Source: an uncultured Chitinophagales bacterium (GTDB lineage Bacteria > Bacteroidota > Ignavibacteria > UBA10030 > UBA6906). Taken from it: a DNA stretch of 64,000 bases. Below, piece after piece: positions 7,291 to 62,493 of this stretch (positions within the stretch are counted from its first letter, which is position 1; every line of letters begins with the position of its first letter). The notes beneath the pieces are model-generated. The model was not told the DNA's origin, made no database searches, and was given only the letters and a program-made list of their open reading frames with translations. The stretch is from positions 38,722 to 102,721 of the forward strand of contig CAYUFU010000002.1 of the NCBI GenBank assembly GCA_964444145.1, in the 5' to 3' direction. The position numbers were made by a program, and so were the translations under genes.

Positions 7291-10200
7291 ATGAATAGTT
7301 TCTTGTTGCGCGCAATTATCACTTGTGTAATCATTGAATGTCTCAGGGACACAATGATCGGCCAAGACTCCTTCATCAACCAAACCCAAGCCGACGCCGA
7401 TCGCAAGAGCAAAGGCTGCATCACGTGCCACGGCGGTATCGAGCCGATGCACAAGAGCAGCGCAGTAAAGTTAGGTTGCATTGATTGTCATGGCGGCAAT
7501 CCGAACGCGACGATTGCCGACCTCGCGCATGTGCAGCCGCGATTTCCCGACCGGTGGAAAACATCGGCGAATCCCCCGCGGACCTACACGCTGCTGAACG
7601 AAGAGTATCCCGAATTCGTTCAGTTCGTGAACCCGGGGGATTTGCGTGTTGCCGATAAAGCGTGCGGACCCTGCCACAATACGACAAGCGATCCAATCGT
7701 GCGCAACGTGCAAAAAAGTTTGATGACGACCAGCGCGCTGCTCTGGGGAGGCGCGGCGTACAACAACGGCATCGTCTCAACGAAAAATTACATTCTCGGT
7801 GAAAGTTACAGTTGGGACGGCAAGCCGCAGAAGATCAACACGGTTCCGGTGCCGAGCGCAGAGGACATGAAGAACAAAGGCGTGCTTCCGTTCGTCGTGC
7901 CGCTGCCGCGCTGGGAGATTACGCAGCCGCCGGATAATTTCCGCAGCTTCGAGCGCGGCGGCAAAGTTCCGCGCATCAATCCGTCGGAGATTGGTATTCC
8001 GAACCCATTTGAAGAGCCGGGCAGACCCGACAATAAGTTGAGCGATCGCGGAACGGGAACGCAACTGCGCATCAGCTCGCCGGTGTTGAACATCCACAAG
8101 ACGCGTTTGAACGACCCTCATCTGTCGTTCATGGGAACGAACGACAATCCGGGTGACTATCGTTCGAGTGGATGCACAGGCTGCCATGTCGTGTACGCAA
8201 ACGATCGCTCGAATTTCAACGCGGGTCCGTACGCGGTGTTTGGCAATCGTGGACAAAGCAAAACCGCCGACACGACGATTTCGAAAAGAGAGTCAGGGCA
8301 TCCTATCAAACATCAATTCACACGGGCGATTCCCTCGTCGCAATGCATGAGCTGCCACATGCACCAGCCGAACGCGTTCGTCAACACGTATCTCGGCTAC
8401 CAAATGTGGGACTACGAAACGGATGCAGAGTTGATGTATCCGAAGCAGCAGAAGTATCCGTCGAATGCGGAAGCCTTTGCGATGCTTGCGAGGAATCCGG
8501 AGGAGGCAGTGCTGCGCGGCAACTGGAGTGACCAGGAGTTTCTTGCTAATGTTTCCTCGCTCAACCCGCAGCTTGCGCACTCGCAGTTCTCTGATTACCA
8601 TGGACACGGCTGGGTGTTTCGCGCCGTCTTCAAACGAGATCGGAAAGGAAATCTGCTCGACAAGGACGGCAAAGTCATTCCCGACAACGCGCCGTTCAAG
8701 TTCGACGGCGTCGTGCCTATCGAAGGCGTCACGCCGAAGACAATGAGCGCCGCAAGTCAGAGCGCGCAGAAAGCCGTGCATTTGAAAGACATTCATCTGG
8801 AAAAAGGAATGCACTGCGTTGATTGTCATTTCAAACAGGACGCGCACGGCGATGGAAAGTTGAAAGGCGAGTTCCACAACGCGGTCGAAATTCAATGCGT
8901 TGATTGTCACGGAACCATGAGTGCGAGGGCAACGCTGAAAACCTCTGGAGTTGCCGCGCCGGCGGGCGGCACGGACTTGACGCAAACATTCACACCATTT
9001 GGCGAACGGCGTTTTCGAAAAACCGCGACGAGTATCAGACAGCGGTCGACTCTCGTGGACACCTTGAGTTGGGAAATTCTCCAGACAGTGGACTCGCACA
9101 CATCGGGCGCAGCGGGATACAATAAGAAAGCTGAAGCCGCCCATCTGATGTTGAAGGACGGTACGATTGGCAAGCCGAATTCGCCTGAGGAGATGTTCGC
9201 CCATTCATACAAAAAAATGGAATGCCAAGCTTGCCACACCTCTTGGATTACGAATTGCTTCGGCTGTCATCTCCCGCAGCAAGCGAATTGGAAGAAACAG
9301 ATGAACCACTACGAAGGCGAGCTCTCGCGCAACTGGACGACATACAATCCACAAGTGCTGCGCGACGATGCGTATATGCTCTGCCTGACGGGCACAACGA
9401 AAGGAAGCAAGATCACGACGGCACGTTCATCGAGTGCGCTCGTCCTCAGTTCGGTGAACGCGAATCGCGAACAGATTTACATTCAGCAAGCGCCGATCTC
9501 ATCACCGGGGCACAGCAGTCAGGCGTTCAATCCGCATTTCTCGCATGCCGTCCGAGCAACCGAGACGAAGCAATGCACCGATTGCCACGTCTCGTCGAAG
9601 AACGACAATAACGCGTGGATGGCGCAGTTGCTTTTGCAAGGAACGAACTTCGTCAACTTCATCGGGAAGTATGCGTACGTTGCTGCGGGCGACGGCGGAC
9701 TCGAAGCGGTGCAAGTGACCGAGCAAGACGAGCCGCAAGCGGTGATCGGAAGTTATCTGCACAGCATTGCGTATCCGGATTATTACAAGGCGCATCTCGA
9801 CAATCGGAAGCAACTCCGAACTTCCTATCATCACAGCGGCAGCGCCTTGAGCGTGCAGTTGCGCGGCGAGTATCTGTACGCGGCGTGCGGCGAAGACGGG
9901 TTCCGCGTGTATGATGTCGCAAACGTGGATAACAAAGGGTTCTCCGAACGCATCGTCACGTCACCGGTATCGCCCTTCGGGCAGGACACGCACGTGAAGA
10001 CCCGTTTCGCAACCGCGGTCGCGCTCCCGACCAACATGCCGATTGACACGCGGCGAAGGTATCGTCCGGAAAACCAAGAGCAGGCGGTCGAGTATAACGG
10101 GAAACAACTCAATCTTCATCCGTCCTATAGCTACGCCTATATCACCGACAGATATGAGGGGTTGATTCTTGTTGATGTGATGAACCTCGTGGACGGAGAC

Positions 10201-11004
10201 CCCCGAAATAATTTCTTGGAGCGTGCGCTCACGTTCAATCCCAATGGGATCTTGAATGGTGCAGTGAATCTTGCGGTTGCGGGGAATTACGTTTATGTTT
10301 GCTGCGACCGCGGCGTCGTCATCGTCAGCATCGCAGATCCGATGAAGCCACGCGTTGCCGCCGAGATTCCGGCGCCTGCAATCACGAAGCCGAAAGCGAT
10401 TGCCATTCAATTCCGCTACGCGTTCGTCGTTGATGACCAAGGTGTGAAGGTGATTGACTTGACGTGGATGGATCAGCCGAAGCTCGTGAAGAGCGCCGTG
10501 GTTCCGCTGCAAGATGCGAATGATGTTTACGTTGCGCGAACGTACGCGTACGTTGCAGCCGGCGCTCAAGGGCTGGCGATTATTGACGTTGAAAATCCAG
10601 AAGCGCCGAGGCTTGAAAAGTTGTTCACAGCGGACGGCGCTATCACTGATGCGCAAGGAGTGAAAGTCGCCTCGACCAACGCGAGCCTGTTCGCGTACGT
10701 TGCCGATGGGAAAAATGGTTTGCGTGTCATTCAGCTCACGTCGCCGAAAACGCCCGGCTATTTAGGCTTCAGTCCGAAGCCCGTGCCGCAATTGATCGCG
10801 ACGATGCCGATGCGCGGCAGAGCGCTTGCTGTCTCGAAAGGGATGGATCGCGACCGCGCGGTGGACGAAAGCGGCAATCAGGTCAGCGTGTTCGGCAGGC
10901 TCGGCTCGCGCCCGTTCACGCACGATGAAATGCGGCAGATGTATTTGAAAGAGGGAAAGTTGTGGACTGTGACGGATGATGGGAGTGTTTCTCTCAAGAA
11001 ATGA
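7291..11004 (+). CDS. Decahaem c-type cytochrome fused to a C-terminal LVIVD-repeat beta-propeller (1237 aa)
   Basis: Ten CXXCH motifs in the first ~770 aa: CITCH, CIDCH, CGPCH, CTGCH, CMSCH, CVDCH x2, CQACH, CFGCH, CTDCH. The C-terminal ~450 aa consist of LVIVD-type repeats (YLYAACGEDGFRVYDVANVDN, YAYITDRYEGLILVDVMNL, YVYVCCDRGVVIVSIADPMKP, YAFVVDDQGVKVIDLTWMDQP, YAYVAAGAQGLAIIDVENPEAP, FAYVADGKNGLRVIQLTSPKTP). The N-terminus MNSFLLRAIITCVIIECL is hydrophobic (signal/anchor). Confidence 0.85.
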   Translation: MNSFLLRAIITCVIIECLRDTMIGQDSFINQTQADADRKSKGCITCHGGIEPMHKSSAVKLGCIDCHGGNPNATIADLAHVQPRFPDRWKTSANPPRTYTLLNEEYPEFVQFVNPGDLRVADKACGPCHNTTSDPIVRNVQKSLMTTSALLWGGAAYNNGIVSTKNYILGESYSWDGKPQKINTVPVPSAEDMKNKGVLPFVVPLPRWEITQPPDNFRSFERGGKVPRINPSEIGIPNPFEEPGRPDNKLSDRGTGTQLRISSPVLNIHKTRLNDPHLSFMGTNDNPGDYRSSGCTGCHVVYANDRSNFNAGPYAVFGNRGQSKTADTTISKRESGHPIKHQFTRAIPSSQCMSCHMHQPNAFVNTYLGYQMWDYETDAELMYPKQQKYPSNAEAFAMLARNPEEAVLRGNWSDQEFLANVSSLNPQLAHSQFSDYHGHGWVFRAVFKRDRKGNLLDKDGKVIPDNAPFKFDGVVPIEGVTPKTMSAASQSAQKAVHLKDIHLEKGMHCVDCHFKQDAHGDGKLKGEFHNAVEIQCVDCHGTMSARATLKTSGVAAPAGGTDLTQTFTPFGERRFRKTATSIRQRSTLVDTLSWEILQTVDSHTSGAAGYNKKAEAAHLMLKDGTIGKPNSPEEMFAHSYKKMECQACHTSWITNCFGCHLPQQANWKKQMNHYEGELSRNWTTYNPQVLRDDAYMLCLTGTTKGSKITTARSSSALVLSSVNANREQIYIQQAPISSPGHSSQAFNPHFSHAVRATETKQCTDCHVSSKNDNNAWMAQLLLQGTNFVNFIGKYAYVAAGDGGLEAVQVTEQDEPQAVIGSYLHSIAYPDYYKAHLDNRKQLRTSYHHSGSALSVQLRGEYLYAACGEDGFRVYDVANVDNKGFSERIVTSPVSPFGQDTHVKTRFATAVALPTNMPIDTRRRYRPENQEQAVEYNGKQLNLHPSYSYAYITDRYEGLILVDVMNLVDGDPRNNFLERALTFNPNGILNGAVNLAVAGNYVYVCCDRGVVIVSIADPMKPRVAAEIPAPAITKPKAIAIQFRYAFVVDDQGVKVIDLTWMDQPKLVKSAVVPLQDANDVYVARTYAYVAAGAQGLAIIDVENPEAPRLEKLFTADGAITDAQGVKVASTNASLFAYVADGKNGLRVIQLTSPKTPGYLGFSPKPVPQLIATMPMRGRALAVSKGMDRDRAVDESGNQVSVFGRLGSRPFTHDEMRQMYLKEGKLWTVTDDGSVSLKK

Positions 11005-11048
11005 AAAGCAATATCGAATATCGAACAAGGAATGTTGAATAACGAAGT
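11005..11048 (+). repeat. Cassette terminal repeat, copy A (AAAGCAATATCGAATATCGAACAAGGAATGTTGAATAACGAAGTG), directly after the cytochrome stop codon
   Basis: Shares GCAATATCGAA...CAAGGAATG...CGAAGTG blocks with copy B (11112-11146, same orientation) and with the inverted copy C (11577-11620). Confidence 0.6.
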
Positions 11049-11111
11049 GAGAGCGCAACGGCTGTGCTTGTTAGTTCATGACCTCCTTATCCAAAGCTCT
11101 GTAAGGAGATG

Positions 11112-11146
11112 AAAAACAATATCGAATATTGAACAAGGAATGTCGG
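11112..11146 (+). repeat. Cassette repeat, copy B (AAAAACAATATCGAATATTGAACAAGGAATGTCGGA)
   Basis: Direct repeat of copy A, 107 bp downstream. Overlaps the TTG-initiated 5' end of ORF 11129..11566. Confidence 0.55.
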
Positions 11147-11155
11147 ATTTTTCAA

Positions 11156-11566
11156 ATGAGGACGGTGATGGATTCGAGACAGAAGCGACAGTTTGATCTC
11201 GAAGAGCGGCTCATTGATTTTTCCTGCATGATCATTGACATCGTCGAGGCGCTCCCCGATACGAAAGTAGGCAATCATGTAGCGGGACAGATTCTGCGGT
11301 CTGGAACTTCACCTGCGCCGAATTATGCCGAAGCGACGAGCGCGGAATCGCGACAGGACTTCATTCACAAGATGAAAGTTTCGCTCAAGGAGTTTCGTGA
11401 GACGAACGTGTGGCTCAAAGTCATAAAGCGAAGAGCCCTTATCAAGCCTTTGGAAAAAATGGAGATTGCGCTGACCGAATGCCGCGAACTCATTTCGATT
11501 TTCGTAACGAGCATCGCGACAGCGAAACGAAATCTGAGGACAATCCCGAGGGCAAGTTCCAAATGA
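11156..11566 (+). CDS. Four-helix-bundle protein (TIGR02436-like, the family encoded inside 23S rRNA intervening sequences)
   Basis: MRTVMDSRQKRQFDLEERLIDFSCMIIDIVEALPDTKVGNHVAGQILRSGTSPAPNYAEATSAES...KMKVSLKEFRETNVWLKVIKR matches the conserved layout of this family. A paralogue lies at 17150-17590. ORF-track start 11129 is TTG; ATG at 11156 preferred. Confidence 0.7.
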   Translation: MRTVMDSRQKRQFDLEERLIDFSCMIIDIVEALPDTKVGNHVAGQILRSGTSPAPNYAEATSAESRQDFIHKMKVSLKEFRETNVWLKVIKRRALIKPLEKMEIALTECRELISIFVTSIATAKRNLRTIPRASSK

Positions 11567-12588
11567 AGTTCACCGGCACTTCGATATTCAATATTCGTCA
11601 TTCCTTGTTCGATATTGCTCTTATCCTTTTTGCGTTGTGGGGCGATGCTTTTGCACAAGGAAAATACCAAACGCTTGGTCCTTCCGGCTGCGGCATCGGT
11701 CAGGACAAGTGCCACGCGACCGAAAACGGACAGATGATCAAGCAGCACAAGAACTCCGCAACAAGTATTGCCGATGGAGAAAATTCACAAAAGTACGCGG
11801 ACGCGCTCGGCGTGAAAGAGTTTCTCCAAAGCCCCCAGTGCATGAATTGCCATGGAACGATTATTTCCGGCAAAGAAGGGAAGGAAGTCGAAGAAGGGGT
11901 GAGTTGCGAGAGTTGTCATGGCGCGGGAAGCGGCTACAAAGATCCGCACTCCGAAGGCCCGAAAGGTAGTGAAGGACAGCCTCGTCCTGGCTACACAAAA
12001 AGCCTCGCGCTGGGACTTGCCGATTTGAAGAAGCCGGAAGAGATAGCAAAAGCATGCGTGCGTTGTCACTACACGACGGATCAAAGACTTATCAGCGCAG
12101 GCCATCCCGATGGTGCCAAGTTTGCCTACAAGTCGAAAATGAAGGATGTAGCGGAGCACTGGAGGTACCGCGACAAAAAGAATGTTCCCGAAGGAGCGGT
12201 ATTCAAAGCAGCGATGGATCGTCGGGCGCCGGGCGCGAAATTCTCTCAGACGCCCAAGCCGGTTGCCCAGCAGGCTCCTGCGCAGCCACCGGTAAAAAGT
12301 CCAGCGCCGACTCCCCAAAAGCCGACTCCGCAAAGTGTTGACGTCACTGCGCCGCCGTTGCAGAAGCAGAACATCGGCGATCAGCCCGCGCCAACGCCGC
12401 GCGTGCGTAAGCCACCACCACCGCCTACACCTGTTGCCGCCGATCGCGACGCTGATCCCCCGCCGACTCCGGCCGAACTGAAAGATCTGCCGCCGTTTCC
12501 GGCGATCACCGAGAGCACGCGCGTTGATCGCATGCTGTTGTTGCTGAAAAAAAGGTTGGAGCTACTCTACACGAAGACAAAAAACTGA
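11563..12588 (+). CDS. Small exported c-type cytochrome (3 canonical CXXCH plus one CX6CH-like site) with a Pro-rich C-terminal tail
   Basis: Signal peptide MKFTGTSIFNIRHSLFDIALILFALWGDAFAQG. Haem motifs CMNCH, CESCH, CVRCH, plus CGIGQDKCH. Tail PKPVAQQAPAQPPVKSPAPTPQKPTPQ...KPPPPPTP. ORF-track start 11410 overlaps the four-helix-bundle gene in another frame and is rejected. ATG 11563 yields the signal peptide. Confidence 0.75.
   Translation: MKFTGTSIFNIRHSLFDIALILFALWGDAFAQGKYQTLGPSGCGIGQDKCHATENGQMIKQHKNSATSIADGENSQKYADALGVKEFLQSPQCMNCHGTIISGKEGKEVEEGVSCESCHGAGSGYKDPHSEGPKGSEGQPRPGYTKSLALGLADLKKPEEIAKACVRCHYTTDQRLISAGHPDGAKFAYKSKMKDVAEHWRYRDKKNVPEGAVFKAAMDRRAPGAKFSQTPKPVAQQAPAQPPVKSPAPTPQKPTPQSVDVTAPPLQKQNIGDQPAPTPRVRKPPPPPTPVAADRDADPPPTPAELKDLPPFPAITESTRVDRMLLLLKKRLELLYTKTKN
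11577..11620 (-). repeat. Cassette terminal repeat, copy C (inverted relative to A/B); lies inside the signal-peptide coding region of the 11563 cytochrome
   Basis: Reverse complement GAGCAATATCGAACAAGGAATGACGAATATTGAATATCGAAGTG matches copy A at both ends. Confidence 0.6.
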
Positions 12589-12590
12589 GA

Positions 12591-12619
12591 ACCACGGATT
12601 ACACGGATTTACACCGATT
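12591..12619 (+). repeat. Left inverted repeat (ACCACGGATTACACGGATTTACACCGATT) of a second small cassette
   Basis: Imperfect inverse partner CAATCCGTGCAATTCCGTGAAATCCGTGGTT at 12786-12816. Confidence 0.5.
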
Positions 12620-12625
12620 AGGTTT

Positions 12626-12712
12626 ATGGAAGAAGAAAAGCAAGAGTCGAAATTGCTTTATGAGGATCTGACCTATCAAATCATTGGCGCGGCGATGGAG
12701 GTCTCCGAGTAG
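12626..12712 (+). pseudogene. Truncated GxxExxY-family gene fragment (28 codons then TAG)
   Basis: MEEEKQESKLLYEDLTYQIIGAAMEVSE* matches the conserved N-terminus (LTxKIIGAAIEVH) of GxxExxY proteins, another family typical of 23S rRNA IVS. No continuation in any frame. Confidence 0.5.
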
Positions 12713-12785
12713 GATTGCTTCTGAATTTCGGGACGCTCAGTCTTGAATACAAAAGAAGAATTCTGTAAAGAGAAATTCCTAAAAA

Positions 12786-12816
12786 CAATCCGTGCAATTC
12801 CGTGAAATCCGTGGTT
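12786..12816 (-). repeat. Right inverted repeat of the GxxExxY-remnant cassette
   Basis: See 12591-12619. Confidence 0.5.
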
Positions 12817-14460: not shown

Positions 14461-15299
14461 TGCCAAAGTCACTACTCAGATCAATCCCTCTGGACAAGCT
14501 CGTCCGCTCTCCCGATTGGGCGGCGGGATTGCTTATCGCAAGCCTCGTGCTCGGCGCAATGTACGCACTGAACGCGTACCTTGACGAAATCAATCCGGGT
14601 AACTGGTGGGGCTTGACGTACGGCTGGCTTTCGGCGCTGCTCATGCTTGGCGCGGGTTTGTATGGCGTGCGACGAAGAATGTTAAACCGCAACATTGGCA
14701 ACTCAAAAGTCTGGGTACAGTTTCATATTTACGGGGGCTTGCTCGCGGGTTTGCTTTTCTTGTTTCATACCGGCTTTCGTTTTCCGAGCGGTCTGTTCAA
14801 TTGGCTGCTCTGGCTGCTCTCGGTTTGGGTGACGGTCAGCGGCGTCATCGGCGTCGTGTTGCAGCGATGGATTCCGCGCATTCTTGCGTCGGGACTTTCG
14901 ACCGAAGCGGTGTACGAGCGCATTCCTGAACTCATCGGGCACGTACGCGAGCGAGCCGAGAAACTTGCGAGTTCCTGTACGATGCCTGTGCAGGATTTTT
15001 ACCGCGCGACGCTCGCAGCGGAGTTCGCCATGCCGCGTCCGCGCCTCATTTATTATTTCGACGTGACCGGGGGGATTCAGTCGTGTATCAGACGCTTCGA
15101 GTTTCTTCGCCGCGTCCTCTCGGTCGAGGAGAAAGAAAAGCTCGATAGCTTACAAGACATGTATCGAACGAAATTGGAATTGGATGCACATTACTCGCTG
15201 CAGACTGCATTGCGGTGGTGGCTCTTCTCGCACGTGCCGCTCTCGCTTGTACTGCTGCTGATGATCGCACTGCATGTTTGGGCAGTGTGGTATTACTAA
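14460..15299 (+). CDS. Integral membrane protein (5 predicted TM helices, His-rich), candidate b-type cytochrome-like membrane anchor
   Basis: Start ATG overlaps the upstream TGA (gtgATGcc), i.e. translational coupling. Helices AAGLLIASLVLGAMYALNAYL, WWGLTYGWLSALLMLGAGLYGV, VWVQFHIYGGLLAGLLFLFHTGF, LFNWLLWLLSVWVTVSGVIGVVL, WWLFSHVPLSLVLLLMIALHVWAVWYY. His residues sit inside helices 3 and 5. Haem ligation is inference only. Confidence 0.65.
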   Translation: MPKSLLRSIPLDKLVRSPDWAAGLLIASLVLGAMYALNAYLDEINPGNWWGLTYGWLSALLMLGAGLYGVRRRMLNRNIGNSKVWVQFHIYGGLLAGLLFLFHTGFRFPSGLFNWLLWLLSVWVTVSGVIGVVLQRWIPRILASGLSTEAVYERIPELIGHVRERAEKLASSCTMPVQDFYRATLAAEFAMPRPRLIYYFDVTGGIQSCIRRFEFLRRVLSVEEKEKLDSLQDMYRTKLELDAHYSLQTALRWWLFSHVPLSLVLLLMIALHVWAVWYY

Positions 15300-15411
15300 C
15301 GTGGATTGATGGATTGATGGATTAATGGATTGATGGATTAATGGATTGATGACCAGGACCAAACCCTTCGATCCATTGATCCAACAATCCAACAATCCAA
15401 TAAGCCAGGAA
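15300..15411. repeat. Tandem GGATTGAT/GGATTAAT octamers (x6) followed by an inverse-type arm (ATCCATTGATCCAACAATCCAACAATCCAATAA); gene-less copy of the element at 17043-17635
   Basis: Directly visible: GTGGATTGATGGATTGATGGATTAATGGATTGATGGATTAATGGATTGATG ... CCAACAATCCAACAATCCAATAA. Confidence 0.7.
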
Positions 15412-15434
15412 TACTCCTAAGCTCTCAGAGGGTC

Positions 15435-17051
15435 ATGCCAAACTCAAAAGACGAAAACAGAACCAAAGGCACCTTCAGCGACGTGCGCATGCCCGTCGCG
15501 AGAACATACATTAGACCGCTCTCGCGCAAGCTGATGATGACTCTCGGCGGCATTGTTTGTGGAGTCGTTGTTGCCTACTATGCCGTTGACTCCCTGCTGT
15601 TGAAGAATACATTCATTGCGAGCGGTCCGGTGGCGGCGAGCCACGCCAACTTCGAGAGCGAATGCGCGAAGTGCCATACGCCGTTCCGCGGCGTGAACGA
15701 TAGCAGGTGCACGACCTGTCATGAGAAGACGAACGACAAGTTGGGGGTATATTCCTTCGCCGCGCATTACCTGTACCGATCGGCAATGCCTGCGCGTATT
15801 GCCGATGCAAAGCAGAAACACGGCGCAGATGAGAAAATGTGCGCTGCTTGTCACCCCGATCATAAGGGACGCAACGCAAGCATCACCGTCGTGACAGATG
15901 CGAAATGCGCCACGTGCCACTACTCCTCGTTCAATGACGATCATCCTGAGTTTGAGTTTGCACGCACGAATGCCGTGGACGATTCGACCTTGAAGATGAC
16001 CCATGTAAAGCACACAAAAGAAGTATTGAAGGAACTTAATACGGCGAACATCGAAACCGCCTGTCTCTATTGCCACAATCCGATGGCGGATGGGAAAGCC
16101 TTCAAGCCGCTCGACTTCGACATGCACTGCGGCGATTGCCACCTCACGGCGAATACGGCATCCGCGTCGCTGACGATTCGCGACCCAAGCAATCCCAGTG
16201 CTCTCGGCGTCGAGACGTTGGAGATGATTCAACAACGAAGAGGTCCCGGCACGCGTTGGGCATTCTATACGAACCCAAACGAATTTACTATTACCGGCTC
16301 GCGCGTACAGAAAGCTCCCGTCTATCATCGCGATCCGTGGATTCTTGAAAACCTCAAAAGGATTCGCTCGATGCTCTACACGGAGGTCGGCCTCTCGGAT
16401 TTGTTGAATGCCGCAGGTGCCGGAGCGGAGAAGGGCAATCAGCAGTCGTATAACGAGGCGATTCAAACGCTCCGCGAGTATGTCACCGGCTTGCGCCCTC
16501 GTCCAGAAAAAGAAATTCAACAGGAGCTTACGACGATTGATTCCTTGTTGGATGTTGCGTCGCGCGTTGTGAATACGCCGGCAGTGACGCTCTCTGATTC
16601 GCTCTTTCGCATAACGGTGCGCATGGAAAACCCAAGCCTCACGGCGCAACAGAAGCAGGATATTTCGGATTTCGGCGAGAAGCTCGCGAAGCCGTGCCTC
16701 GAGTGTCATTACGTTGAGCGTGCGGCGATTCTTGGCGTGAAGGCGATCCAGCGAACGTTTTCGCGTGCCGAGTTCGATCATCGCGCGCATATTACGCAGC
16801 GCCGCTGCCTCGAATGCCATGACGTAATACCGATTGACGATGCGCTGTCGGACGATTCACTCGCAGTTACACGAGCCGCCGCGAAGATTCCGACGCTTGA
16901 TATCGCAGCGACACACAATATTCCGAAAAAAGAAAACTGCATCGAGTGTCATACAGCAGGCGCAGGGTCGAATGAATGCATCACATGCCACTTCATGCAT
17001 CCGAACAAAACGCAGCGCGGGAGTTTACAACTATTCGTTTCTAAGCCCTGA
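15435..17051 (+). CDS. Membrane-anchored decahaem c-type cytochrome
   Basis: N-terminal TM helix MMTLGGIVCGVVVAYYAV. Ten CXXCH motifs: CAKCH, CTTCH, CAACH, CATCH, CLYCH, CGDCH, CLECH x2, CIECH, CITCH. Confidence 0.85.
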   Translation: MPNSKDENRTKGTFSDVRMPVARTYIRPLSRKLMMTLGGIVCGVVVAYYAVDSLLLKNTFIASGPVAASHANFESECAKCHTPFRGVNDSRCTTCHEKTNDKLGVYSFAAHYLYRSAMPARIADAKQKHGADEKMCAACHPDHKGRNASITVVTDAKCATCHYSSFNDDHPEFEFARTNAVDDSTLKMTHVKHTKEVLKELNTANIETACLYCHNPMADGKAFKPLDFDMHCGDCHLTANTASASLTIRDPSNPSALGVETLEMIQQRRGPGTRWAFYTNPNEFTITGSRVQKAPVYHRDPWILENLKRIRSMLYTEVGLSDLLNAAGAGAEKGNQQSYNEAIQTLREYVTGLRPRPEKEIQQELTTIDSLLDVASRVVNTPAVTLSDSLFRITVRMENPSLTAQQKQDISDFGEKLAKPCLECHYVERAAILGVKAIQRTFSRAEFDHRAHITQRRCLECHDVIPIDDALSDDSLAVTRAAAKIPTLDIAATHNIPKKENCIECHTAGAGSNECITCHFMHPNKTQRGSLQLFVSKP

Positions 17052-17130
17052 GCGGAGCGAAGGGCATTGGCTGCTTGGTGGATTGGTGGATTGATGGATT
17101 GATGGATTGATGGATTGCGGATGCGCGGGT
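17043..17130 (+). repeat. Left arm of the GGATTGAT element: AAGCCCTGAGCGGAGCGAAGGGCAT module plus (GGATTGGT/GGATTGAT)x5; starts inside the last codons of the cytochrome gene
   Basis: The same 5' module TAAGCCCTGATCGGAGCGAAGGGTAT recurs at 55409. Confidence 0.65.
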
Positions 17131-17149
17131 CAACTATTGAGGAGAAGTT

Positions 17150-17590
17150 ATGGAATACACAAAACTCAGAAACAAGAATCGCGGCTACATGAAGTTGGAT
17201 GTGTGGCAAAAGGGAATCGTGCTGTTCCAGCTCGTTTGGAATCTCATCACGAAAGCAAAAGTAGATTTTAAGCTGCGGTCACAAATCGCCAATGCTGCTC
17301 AAGGGATTTCATCCAACATCGCGGAAGGCTATAGCAGACGCTCGGTAAAGGAGTATCTTCAATTCTTGTATGTTTCTCTCGGCTGTCTTTCTGAAACGCT
17401 CACGAGGTCTGTGGGGCTAAAAGTGATAAACCAAATCTCTGAAGACGAGTTCAATCAGATTGACGTTTTGCATTATGAAATTGAAAACAAACTGTGGCGA
17501 TTGGTCGAAAGTTTAGGGCGGAAGAAAGACGATGGCACGTGGAGCGATCGCGTCTCAGAGGATTTATCGGAATACCCAACAATCCAATAA
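17150..17590 (+). CDS. Four-helix-bundle protein (TIGR02436-like), second copy
   Basis: MKLDVWQKGIVLFQLVWNLITKAKVDFKLRSQIANAAQGISSNIAEGYSRRSVKEYLQFLYVSLGCLSE carries the family signatures LDVWQK, NIAEGY and EYLxFLxxSxGSLxE. Alternative start at M14 (17189). The C-terminal codons overlap the right repeat arm. Confidence 0.75.
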   Translation: MEYTKLRNKNRGYMKLDVWQKGIVLFQLVWNLITKAKVDFKLRSQIANAAQGISSNIAEGYSRRSVKEYLQFLYVSLGCLSETLTRSVGLKVINQISEDEFNQIDVLHYEIENKLWRLVESLGRKKDDGTWSDRVSEDLSEYPTIQ

Positions 17591-17625
17591 TCCATTTATC
17601 CATGAATCCATTGATTCATTATTCC
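17575..17625. repeat. Right (inverse-type) arm of the GGATTGAT element (CCAACAATCCAATAATCCATTTATCCATGAATCCATTGATTCA)
   Basis: Complement-type CAATCC units mirror the GGATTG units of the left arm. Confidence 0.6.
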
Positions 17626-17635
17626 TCCTAGTGTT

Positions 17636-61299: not shown

Positions 61300-61368
61300 G
61301 GGGAACGTAGGGCATCTCATCTGCAAGAGTTCATAGCATTGATAATCAACAGGAATGCAAAAGGAAAA

Positions 61369-62493
61369 ATGAAAAAGGCAAAACAATTCGGACTCCTTTT
61401 CATTTTTCATTTTTCATTTTTCCTTTCCTTCTCCCAAACCAACCCCAACTTCAACGTCCGCCTCACTCTCAACCACGAATCCGCCGAACGCGCAATCGAA
61501 TTGTACGAAGGCAAATGGGGGCGTGGTCGCGACATCGTGCCGTTGAAGGGAAGCCAAATCGCACTTGCAACCACTGCCGACCTTGCGCGCAGAAGGCTCT
61601 CGCCATCGTATCTCGAGGAAAGCTTAGACGGAATCAAATTCGGACAAGTGAGTAACGACGACATTTTTTTGTTGAAGGATGCGAGACAGAACGTCGCCGC
61701 GCTGAAGGAACTGCTCGACTACATCAAGCGACGCAACTTTGCACAGCGAGTGGCAAGCACCGTTGAACAGCTGTTCCCAGGCGATGCAAGAATCTCGACG
61801 ACGATTCCGCTCTTCTTCGTCGCGTTCGGTCATCAGAATATTGATGCGTATGTTCGCCGTGTTGTCTGGTACGATAACATTCCGCATTTCGTTGGCGAAG
61901 GAGAAGGCGAATTGACCATTGTCGTGAATCTCGCGAAAGCCATTCGCTACGGTCGTACTGTTGACGAACGATTCATCGGTGTGCTGAGCGTTGTTGCGCA
62001 CGAAGTCTTTCATGCGGCATTCGGCGTATACAAAGATGAATCACCGGCATGGCGCGAGTATTACTCAACGCGTACTTCCTATCTGGACGACCTGCTCGAC
62101 TTGACTCAGAACGAAGGCATCGCCCATTACCTGACGTTTGAGCAGCGCACAGGGGGCTATCTTCCGCAGGATTGGAATGAGAGGGTTGCCGCGTCGTTCG
62201 CAGAGTTCAATCGGAGCGCGGAAGAGCTTCTCTCATCGCGCATATCACCTCAACGCGCTCATCTCCTCATCAGCACATCGAACACCTCCGAGTATTGGAA
62301 GAGCTACGGCGCAATCACGGGCATGTTCATCGCACGCACGCTTGACGCGCAGTTGGGGCGTAAGGCGCTCACGGAAACTGTTGCCACTGGCGTGGATGAA
62401 TTTTATTTACAGTACATTTCTCTTGCAGAACGAGACGCTACCCTGCCGAAACTCTCCGAGCAAATCGCGCGACGTATTTCGAGCCGACGATAG
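61369..62493 (+). CDS. Secreted hypothetical protein with an HEXXH zinc-metallopeptidase motif
   Basis: Signal peptide MKKAKQFGLLFIFHFSFFLSFSQ. LSVVAHEVFHAAFG (HEXXH). No further family assignment. Confidence 0.55.
   Translation: MKKAKQFGLLFIFHFSFFLSFSQTNPNFNVRLTLNHESAERAIELYEGKWGRGRDIVPLKGSQIALATTADLARRRLSPSYLEESLDGIKFGQVSNDDIFLLKDARQNVAALKELLDYIKRRNFAQRVASTVEQLFPGDARISTTIPLFFVAFGHQNIDAYVRRVVWYDNIPHFVGEGEGELTIVVNLAKAIRYGRTVDERFIGVLSVVAHEVFHAAFGVYKDESPAWREYYSTRTSYLDDLLDLTQNEGIAHYLTFEQRTGGYLPQDWNERVAASFAEFNRSAEELLSSRISPQRAHLLISTSNTSEYWKSYGAITGMFIARTLDAQLGRKALTETVATGVDEFYLQYISLAERDATLPKLSEQIARRISSRR

Follow-up and report, generated by a model that had tools for sequence, protein, structure and literature searches.

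We analysed a 64,000-nt stretch (the window) of contig CAYUFU010000002.1 from an uncultured Chitinophagales bacterium (Bacteroidota, Ignavibacteria; assembly GCA_964444145.1), in which a small gene enclosed by inverted repeat arrays is set between two genes of a multihaem cytochrome cluster. The upstream host gene, an open reading frame (ORF) at 7291-11004 on the forward strand, encodes a decahaem c-type cytochrome with LVIVD repeats; it contains ten CxxCH motifs, matches PF08309 and cytochrome c3/c7 models, and ends with a TGA at 11002-11004. The downstream host gene (11563-12588, forward strand) encodes a c554-like multihaem cytochrome (MKFTGTSIFNIRHSLFDIAL...) that matches PF13435 and for which 305 homologues were retrieved. 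The cargo gene between them (11168-11566, forward strand) encodes a four-helix-bundle protein of 132 aa, assigned by hidden Markov model (HMM) to TIGR02436 / PF05635, the 23S rRNA intervening sequence (IVS) protein family S23p. Its scores were 79.1 bits for TIGR02436, where the cut-off is 24, and 49.4 bits for PF05635, where it is 33.8; the nearest solved structure was 2RLD (E = 6.8e-14). The start at 11168 was picked from the alignment of homologues and a GAGGA motif 6 nt upstream; an alternative start at 11156 was used by one gene caller. At least 5813 homologues of the cargo protein were found, 60-70% identical across phyla, and PADLOC models gave no match to it. The cargo stop codon overlaps the cytochrome start (ATGA, 11563-11566), and the element occupies the whole gap from the upstream stop codon to the downstream gene. 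To our knowledge, no function has been assigned to the four-helix-bundle (S23p) family in more than 30 years, beyond its presence in some 23S IVSs and its kinship with Avd.

The cargo gene is bracketed by three repeat arrays. Arm A, the outer left arm (11004-11049, forward strand), and arm B, the gene-proximal left arm (11112-11148, forward strand), whose inner half is degenerate, are direct copies, and arm C, the right arm (11577-11622, reverse strand), is inverted. A first-pass annotation of this DNA, made from the letters alone, had proposed two direct and one inverted repeat of about 40 bp around a TIGR02436-type gene, with the cassette starting at the decahaem stop codon. This layout was borne out, as was the family assignment, which the annotation had named as a point where its reading might fail; the plain repeats it described were refined to heptad arrays. 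Each arm is about 40 nt long and consists of five to six heptads of the form GAAnnnn, arranged as an inward-facing inverted repeat around the 132-aa gene, and the heptads of arm A read CAATATC GAATATC GAACAAG GAATGTT GAATAAC GAAGTG. Because the TGA occupies 11002-11004, arm A begins on the last base of the decahaem stop codon. A and C are 80% complementary over 46 nt, and B and C pair over 37 nt with 70% complementarity. A 25-mer of arm A found two matches in the window at no more than three mismatches, and none in 100 shuffles. Two copies of a 51-nt direct repeat, 84% identical and spaced by 108 nt, were also identified on the forward strand (10990-11040 and 11098-11148). The first joins the final 15 nt of the decahaem gene to the outer part of arm A, so that the gene's last codons and stop fall within the direct repeat. 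The spacer between the left arms (11050-11111, forward strand) holds a local hairpin (CTCCTTA...TAAGGAG) and a mini-ORF with a Shine-Dalgarno sequence and an ATG.

When the flanks were folded, as the first-pass annotation had suggested, the minimum-free-energy structure of 10995-11632 (638 nt, RNAfold) was closed by A and C. The predicted A:C duplex had an energy of -46.5 kcal/mol, compared with -12.0 +/- 3.1 kcal/mol for shuffled C, and the predicted B:C duplex reached only -31.0 kcal/mol. Because of the heptad periodicity, A and C pair best one heptad out of register. In this model, A and B are two left arms and the predicted partner of C is A, not B. A search of 10800-11800 against Rfam at permissive thresholds gave no meaningful match, the sole match being a microRNA model at chance level (E = 8.1).

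The same cassette was recovered from many other places. Metagenome contigs were scanned with an alignment of 34 homologues (A1), which yielded 592 relatives, and 80 loci were kept. With the core defined as the 11-nt GAACAAGGAAT at no more than one mismatch (chance rate about 0.002 per flank), a forward core lay within about 80 nt upstream of the gene in 31/80 loci and an inverted core within about 85 nt downstream in 30/80; 28/80 loci had the core on both sides, and the reversed arrangement never occurred. The core-aligned arms on both sides follow the pattern tGAATATC GAATATC GAACAAG GAATGTC GAATGTC GAAGg, with a sharp outer boundary beyond which the sequences are unrelated among loci, and dozens of unrelated contexts and phyla hold the cassette with the same arms. 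The start codon (MSKE...) of many members falls inside the last heptads, and the AAGGA of the core is placed as a Shine-Dalgarno sequence. Loci without the core mostly carried other units (CAACATT, GATTGAT, CCAATAT, GAATGCA or AACATCC), each complemented across the gene, and four four-helix-bundle genes of other subfamilies that were met in the fetched loci had the same layout with other units again. An ungapped inverted repeat from flank to flank scored at least 14 in 52 of the 72 evaluable loci (shuffle maximum 10), and the median arm-match score was 18 with the element's own arm versus 9 with arms taken from other elements. At lag 7 the downstream flanks had a self-identity of 0.42, versus about 0.28 at other lags. 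At locus L190, four tandem copies of the left arm with 52-nt spacing were observed 50-210 nt upstream of the gene; therefore, arm duplication, as in A and B of the window, recurs elsewhere.

Pairing between the arms exceeded that in shuffled controls. Across 29 core-aligned cassettes, 78.6% of cells were paired versus 74.7 +/- 0.6% after shuffling (0/500 shuffles reached the observed value), changes occurred on both sides in 33 of 45 pairs versus 21 expected, and sliding the partner by 1-3 columns reduced pairing to 35-48%. The cassettes were also oriented with their surroundings, lying in the direction of the upstream neighbour in 42/54 cases and of the downstream neighbour in 38/48; both neighbours were co-oriented with the cassette in 23/37 cases and both were opposite in 1/37. 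Among mismatches read on the sense strand, G-U outnumbered A-C (72 versus 44, p = 0.012).

The arms are also widespread apart from the gene. The 18-mer AATATYGAACAAGGAATG, searched as an exact string in one genome per species, was found in at least 120 contigs, several of them from the same metagenome-assembled genome (MAG), where about 35 chance matches were expected in the collection by a rough estimate that assumes uniform base composition. The hits came from Verrucomicrobiota, Planctomycetota (including Brocadia), Desulfobacterota, Bacteroidota, Ignavibacteria, Acidobacteriota, Kiritimatiellales and others, so the possibility raised in the annotation that the repeats occur only at this locus did not hold. 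The next heptad followed in phase in 115/129 occurrences versus 3% expected; therefore, the 18-mer occurrences represent homologous elements. In most genome matches a loop of 18-100 nt separates a forward arm from an inverted one, and a four-helix-bundle gene is missing. HMM searches, single-sequence or iterated, placed such genes beside only 3 of the 120 genome matches, and gene-less hairpins therefore outnumber full cassettes. These solo hairpins lay more often between convergent (9) than between divergent genes (2). Viral contigs, whose matches served as a negative control for heptad flanks, had 18-mer matches at chance level and without such flanks, except in L221 and possibly L218, and the cargo subfamily was practically absent from them; a phage vector for the cassette was dropped from consideration on these grounds.

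These features resemble those of the ORF-bearing IVSs in 23S rRNA genes of Leptospira, Coxiella burnetii, Xanthomonas and Brucella, which have S23p / PF05635 cargo in common with the cassette described here. In Coxiella, RNase III cuts the IVS within a 28-bp stem made by terminal inverted repeats; tandem GACAGAT heptamers in variable number precede the S23p start, and the ORF is in sense with the rRNA transcript (PMC4990558). Both kinds of element combine a sense cargo gene inside stem-forming terminal inverted repeats with heptamers just before the start codon, at a total size of about 430-600 nt. The differences are that 23S IVSs lie in helix 25 or 45 of 23S rRNA, whereas the present cassette lies between two protein-coding cistrons; that the arm units are of the GAATATC type here and GACAGAT in Coxiella; and that one arm here is coding sequence of a host gene. 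Thus, the IVS-like character proposed by the first-pass annotation holds for the architecture and the cargo family; the location differs, the cassette being flanked by cytochrome genes instead of lying inside a 23S rRNA gene. A crude screen of about 220 fetched loci for five conserved rRNA motifs as exact strings found none. RNase III excision, established for rRNA IVSs, may extend to the cassette by likeness. We found no description of such a cassette outside rRNA in the searchable literature, which does not extend to the text written by protein-family curators.

Considering all the above results, we regard it as probable, with some reservation, that the element belongs to a widespread kind of stem-loop cassette, the kind to which the ORF-bearing 23S IVSs also belong, and is a copy resident between two cistrons of the multihaem cytochrome cluster. 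The cassette would be read through within the host transcript, where the arms would form a long stem with imperfect pairing, as those of rRNA IVSs do; such a stem is a plausible substrate for RNase III and may modulate translation of both the cargo and the downstream cytochrome. The right arm has been taken over as coding sequence for the N-terminal signal-peptide region of the c554-like cytochrome. The co-orientation of the cassettes, the G-U excess and the lack of a promoter or terminator (none of sigma-70 or intrinsic type was found in 10700-11900, with a sigma-70 consensus that may not fit the host phylum) favour, without proving, an element that lives and folds in the host transcript. The cassette is presumably mobile. 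A more speculative suggestion is that the four-helix-bundle protein acts as a pentamer that binds five to six units of its own arms, as RNA or single-stranded DNA, and so controls processing or copying.

The history of the locus was followed in relatives found through the downstream c554-like cytochrome. They carry the same decahaem gene upstream of the junction, and the element shares this junction with relatives whose flanking proteins are 50-93% identical; the four-helix-bundle gene itself is at the same position in L004/L005, L208 and L209. The closest relatives, L002/L003 (flanking proteins 84-93% identical), are without the gene, yet their junction is not an empty site. They carry a 404-nt deletion (window 11118-11521) that starts at the first heptad of arm B. 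To its left they keep arm A, the spacer (11050-11111 in the window) and the first bases before B, and to its right the ORF's last 14 codons and arm C. L002 has both copies of the 51-nt direct repeat, and L004 and L208 have one left arm each. Another c554-like cytochrome homologue, P0006, has a truncated four-helix-bundle N-terminus (RQRVYDLEERLVTFSC...) in frame with the arm-derived cytochrome N-terminus, and is an independent deletion derivative of the cassette. In L210 only a bare hairpin is present, whose left arm contributes an ATG as well as the closing codons of the decahaem gene and whose right arm gives the cytochrome N-terminus, and L006 has only vestiges of the element at the junction.

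Divergence of the cargo gene was close to that of its neighbours. Its identity at fourfold sites was 0.58 in L208 versus 0.43-0.47 for the neighbours, and 0.29 in L209 versus 0.32-0.37, and its protein identity in these relatives (0.70-0.86) was similar to that of the neighbouring proteins. Recent transfer of the cargo into the junction was not supported, since its synonymous divergence is not much below that of the neighbours. Fourfold-site divergence and protein identity both track the neighbours, and therefore the cassette is old, vertically inherited and under purifying selection, contrary to the recent insertion that the first-pass annotation implied. These comparisons show that the cassette entered the junction before the sampled relatives diverged and has been inherited vertically since. 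It has been lost repeatedly by deletion, as seen from the internal deletions in L002 and P0006, the bare hairpin in L210 and the vestige in L006.

The annotation had further claimed that the distal repeat encodes part of the signal peptide of the next cytochrome and had thus remodelled a gene start, which agrees with what was found. Arm C (11577-11622) encodes residues 5-20 (GTSIFNIRHSLFDIAL) of the downstream cytochrome. Cytochrome N-termini of the close clade, and only of this clade, are recognisably arm-derived (for example SIFNIRHSLFDIAL, SLFRIRYSLFDIAF and SLFNILYSLFAIAL), and the signal peptides of more distant homologues are of the ordinary kind. The stretch encoded by arm C probably acts as a signal peptide, because it has a hydrophobic core and an AFA motif and aligns with the homologues. 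The overlap of the cargo stop with the cytochrome start is ATGA in the window and in L209, and GTGA in L004 and L208. Two further rearrangements were observed at this junction. In L004 (2296-2570), the 3' end of the four-helix-bundle gene, the right arm and the cytochrome start are tandemly duplicated, and a stop codon disrupts the first copy of the cytochrome start. In L208, a 21-nt insert (2632-2652) splits the left arm and is a small hairpin in its own right (TCCGAAGGActcCTTTCGGA).

Four more such elements are present in the window, three at other intercistronic junctions of the same cluster, which also holds cytochrome, ferredoxin-like and cNMP-binding genes near the cassette, and one as a solo hairpin elsewhere. 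A second four-helix-bundle cassette (17074-17631), with inverted octad arrays of TGGATTGA and arms of 43 nt that are 74% complementary, takes up the space that separates a second decahaem gene from an FHA-domain gene; its ORF (17150-17590, 146 aa) reached 68.2 bits with TIGR02436 and 70.9 bits with PF05635. At the corresponding junction L006 has no element, and the stop and start overlap as TAATG. A solo hairpin of the same octads, TGGATTGA, lies at 15296-15421, between a stop at 15299 and a start at 15435, with 54-nt arms and an 18-nt loop; six octads are present in the window versus three in L002, and the abutting stop and start codons of L208, L209 and L210 mark empty sites. At 12590-12816, inverted arrays of 9-10-mers (CACGGATTA / AATCCGTG; arms 37 nt, 81% complementary) surround an internally deleted GxxExxY-like gene, of which an N-terminus (...LTYQIIGAAMEV) and an out-of-frame C-terminus (VGLLLNFGTLSLEYKRRIL) remain, the C-terminal 18 residues matching TIGR04256 (GxxExxY) at E = 0.0037. 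L002, L209, L210 and L006 have a clean empty site at this junction (...TGA followed directly by ATG...). The element is present in L208, where all units of both arms are changed in concert, from CACGGATT / AATCCGTG in the window to CACAGATT / AATCTGTG. The solo heptad hairpin outside the cluster (61354-61426) has GAAAAAT / TTTTCAT units, arms of 24-29 nt that are 83-92% complementary, and a loop of 14-19 nt.

Several of these results weigh against a cassette that works through folding in RNA. The core-aligned arms pair at only about 72-79% of positions, and the mismatches recur at variable heptad positions and interrupt many stems. Covariation of an inverted DNA repeat alone cannot separate RNA pairing from copying at the DNA level. 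The G-U excess seen in cassettes is missing from the solo hairpins (G-U 56 versus A-C 64), the promoter search loses force if its consensus is ill suited to the phylum, and efficient processing would be costly at this locus because cleavage of the A:C stem would part the cytochrome start codon from the body of the gene. The element could instead be a DNA-level foldback, like a miniature inverted-repeat transposable element (MITE) with cargo, for which RNA pairing is incidental, and the arms would then be substrates of recombination or replication (fold-back synthesis, slippage or a trans-acting enzyme), with the solo hairpins as deletion derivatives or landing pads. We consider this rather unlikely as the main explanation, and it is compatible with the RNA model. 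The concerted change in both arms of the 12590-12816 element between the window and L208 suggests that one arm or unit was copied from another, and together with the difference in octad number between the window and L002 (six versus three at 15296-15421) it counts in favour of copying at the DNA level as well. The sharp outer boundaries of the arms, the abundance of multi-copy gene-less hairpins, their lack of G-U bias and the clean empty and filled sites at stop/start junctions of relatives point the same way, and a protein that is 60-70% identical and arm DNA that is nearly identical across phyla argue for horizontal spread. However, the cassette is without a recombinase, its units vary widely between elements, unlike the terminal repeats of a single transposase, and its co-orientation with host transcription is strong. 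Moreover, the cargo subfamily is essentially absent from viral contigs, and comparison of filled with empty sites at 12590-12816 and 15296-15421 shows no target-site duplication, although no systematic search for one was made; for the cassette itself the relatives offer no empty site.

The cargo might also be an ordinary gene dedicated to the cytochrome operon, such as one for a maturation or regulatory factor, with the repeats as the operon's regulatory hairpin. The gene is kept at the junction in several relatives, is under purifying selection and is coupled to the cytochrome through ATGA or GTGA, all of which such a role would explain. We nevertheless find it improbable, since the same cassette and arms occur in dozens of unrelated contexts and phyla, the gene was lost while the operon was retained in L002, L210 and L006, and analogous elements occupy three other junctions of the cluster, one of them with a different cargo. 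Least credible of all is a generic dispersed repeat of the repetitive extragenic palindrome (REP) type that flanks an unrelated small gene by chance. The finding that most genome matches to the arm core do not adjoin a four-helix-bundle gene would fit it, but the presence of both cores in 28/80 loci and of inverted repeats in 52/72, against about 0.002 per flank by chance, would not, nor would the fact that arms of different unit types still match within each element. MITEs, REPs and bacterial interspersed mosaic elements (BIMEs) are small, multi-copy intergenic hairpins, like the gene-less hairpins found here; REPs are lineage-specific, whereas the present arm sequence is common to many phyla and its arms are periodic arrays.

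Other known systems fit the stem-loop cassette less well. No partner transposase or REP-associated tyrosine transposase (RAYT) was identified for the element, whose only ORF is the 132-aa four-helix-bundle protein, although the search for an enzyme acting in trans could not take in the complete genome. It does not correspond to an integron gene cassette, having repeats at both ends and no integrase among its neighbours. Avd, the accessory protein of diversity-generating retroelements, has a homologous four-helix-bundle pentamer fold (PMC10053308). The setting here is unlike that of Avd, with no template or variable repeats adjoining the gene, no reverse transcriptase among the called neighbours and no PADLOC match. 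Arrays of intergenic heptamers have been reported as GGGAATC in Xanthomonas and GGGGA(C/T)T in Nostoc; the Xanthomonas arrays form 70-75 convergent inverted pairs per genome that are capable of stem-loops and have sites conserved between species, and they were read as G-quadruplex-forming simple repeats, with no tie to four-helix-bundle genes (PMC4692102). They share the 7-nt intergenic unit with the arms described here but are G-rich, and one class of repeat-array hairpins may include both. The long terminal inverted repeats of eukaryotic foldback (FB) elements such as Drosophila FB consist of short tandem subrepeats in variable number, and these elements have an empty or gene-bearing loop and are prone to deletion. 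As they are eukaryotic, of kilobase scale and have no proteins in common with the cassette, the likeness is architectural only.

A different cargo was seen intact in L028, a Prosthecobacter MAG, where a GxxExxY gene lies between inverted heptads (AACCGCAGATGAACGCAGATG / CATCTGCG...CATCTGCGGTT) on the reverse strand (1954-2404), with a further solo hairpin of the same units just downstream. Together, the elements of the window and of L028 suggest a broader class with interchangeable cargo at stop/start junctions. Tentatively, and with less confidence than in the cassette at this locus, we propose an unrecognised cross-phylum class of intercistronic foldback cassettes. Its members would have inverted arrays of 7-10-nt units that vary between elements and match within each, and a loop that holds a TIGR02436 gene or a GxxExxY (PD-(D/E)XK-like) gene or is empty; they would be inserted exactly between stop and start codons in tight operons, and the classical 23S IVSs would be the special case that landed in rRNA.

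Since copies outside rRNA occur in a heptad-repeat stem of the same kind, the IVS would be one instance of a general element and not an rRNA oddity. The cassette interpretation predicts processing of the stem, binding of the protein to the arms and insertion at stop/start junctions, and it would account for intergenic hairpins and short ORFs that are common, and otherwise unexplained, in genomes of Planctomycetota, Verrucomicrobiota, Bacteroidota and Desulfobacterota. If the stretch encoded by arm C acts as proposed, the locus would be a clear case of a selfish insert that gave coding sequence to a host gene, an arm having become a signal peptide. Elsewhere in the window, at 2142-2180, a tandem array of 5.6 copies of the heptad AAAAGGA was observed, with no inverted partner within 2050-2300.

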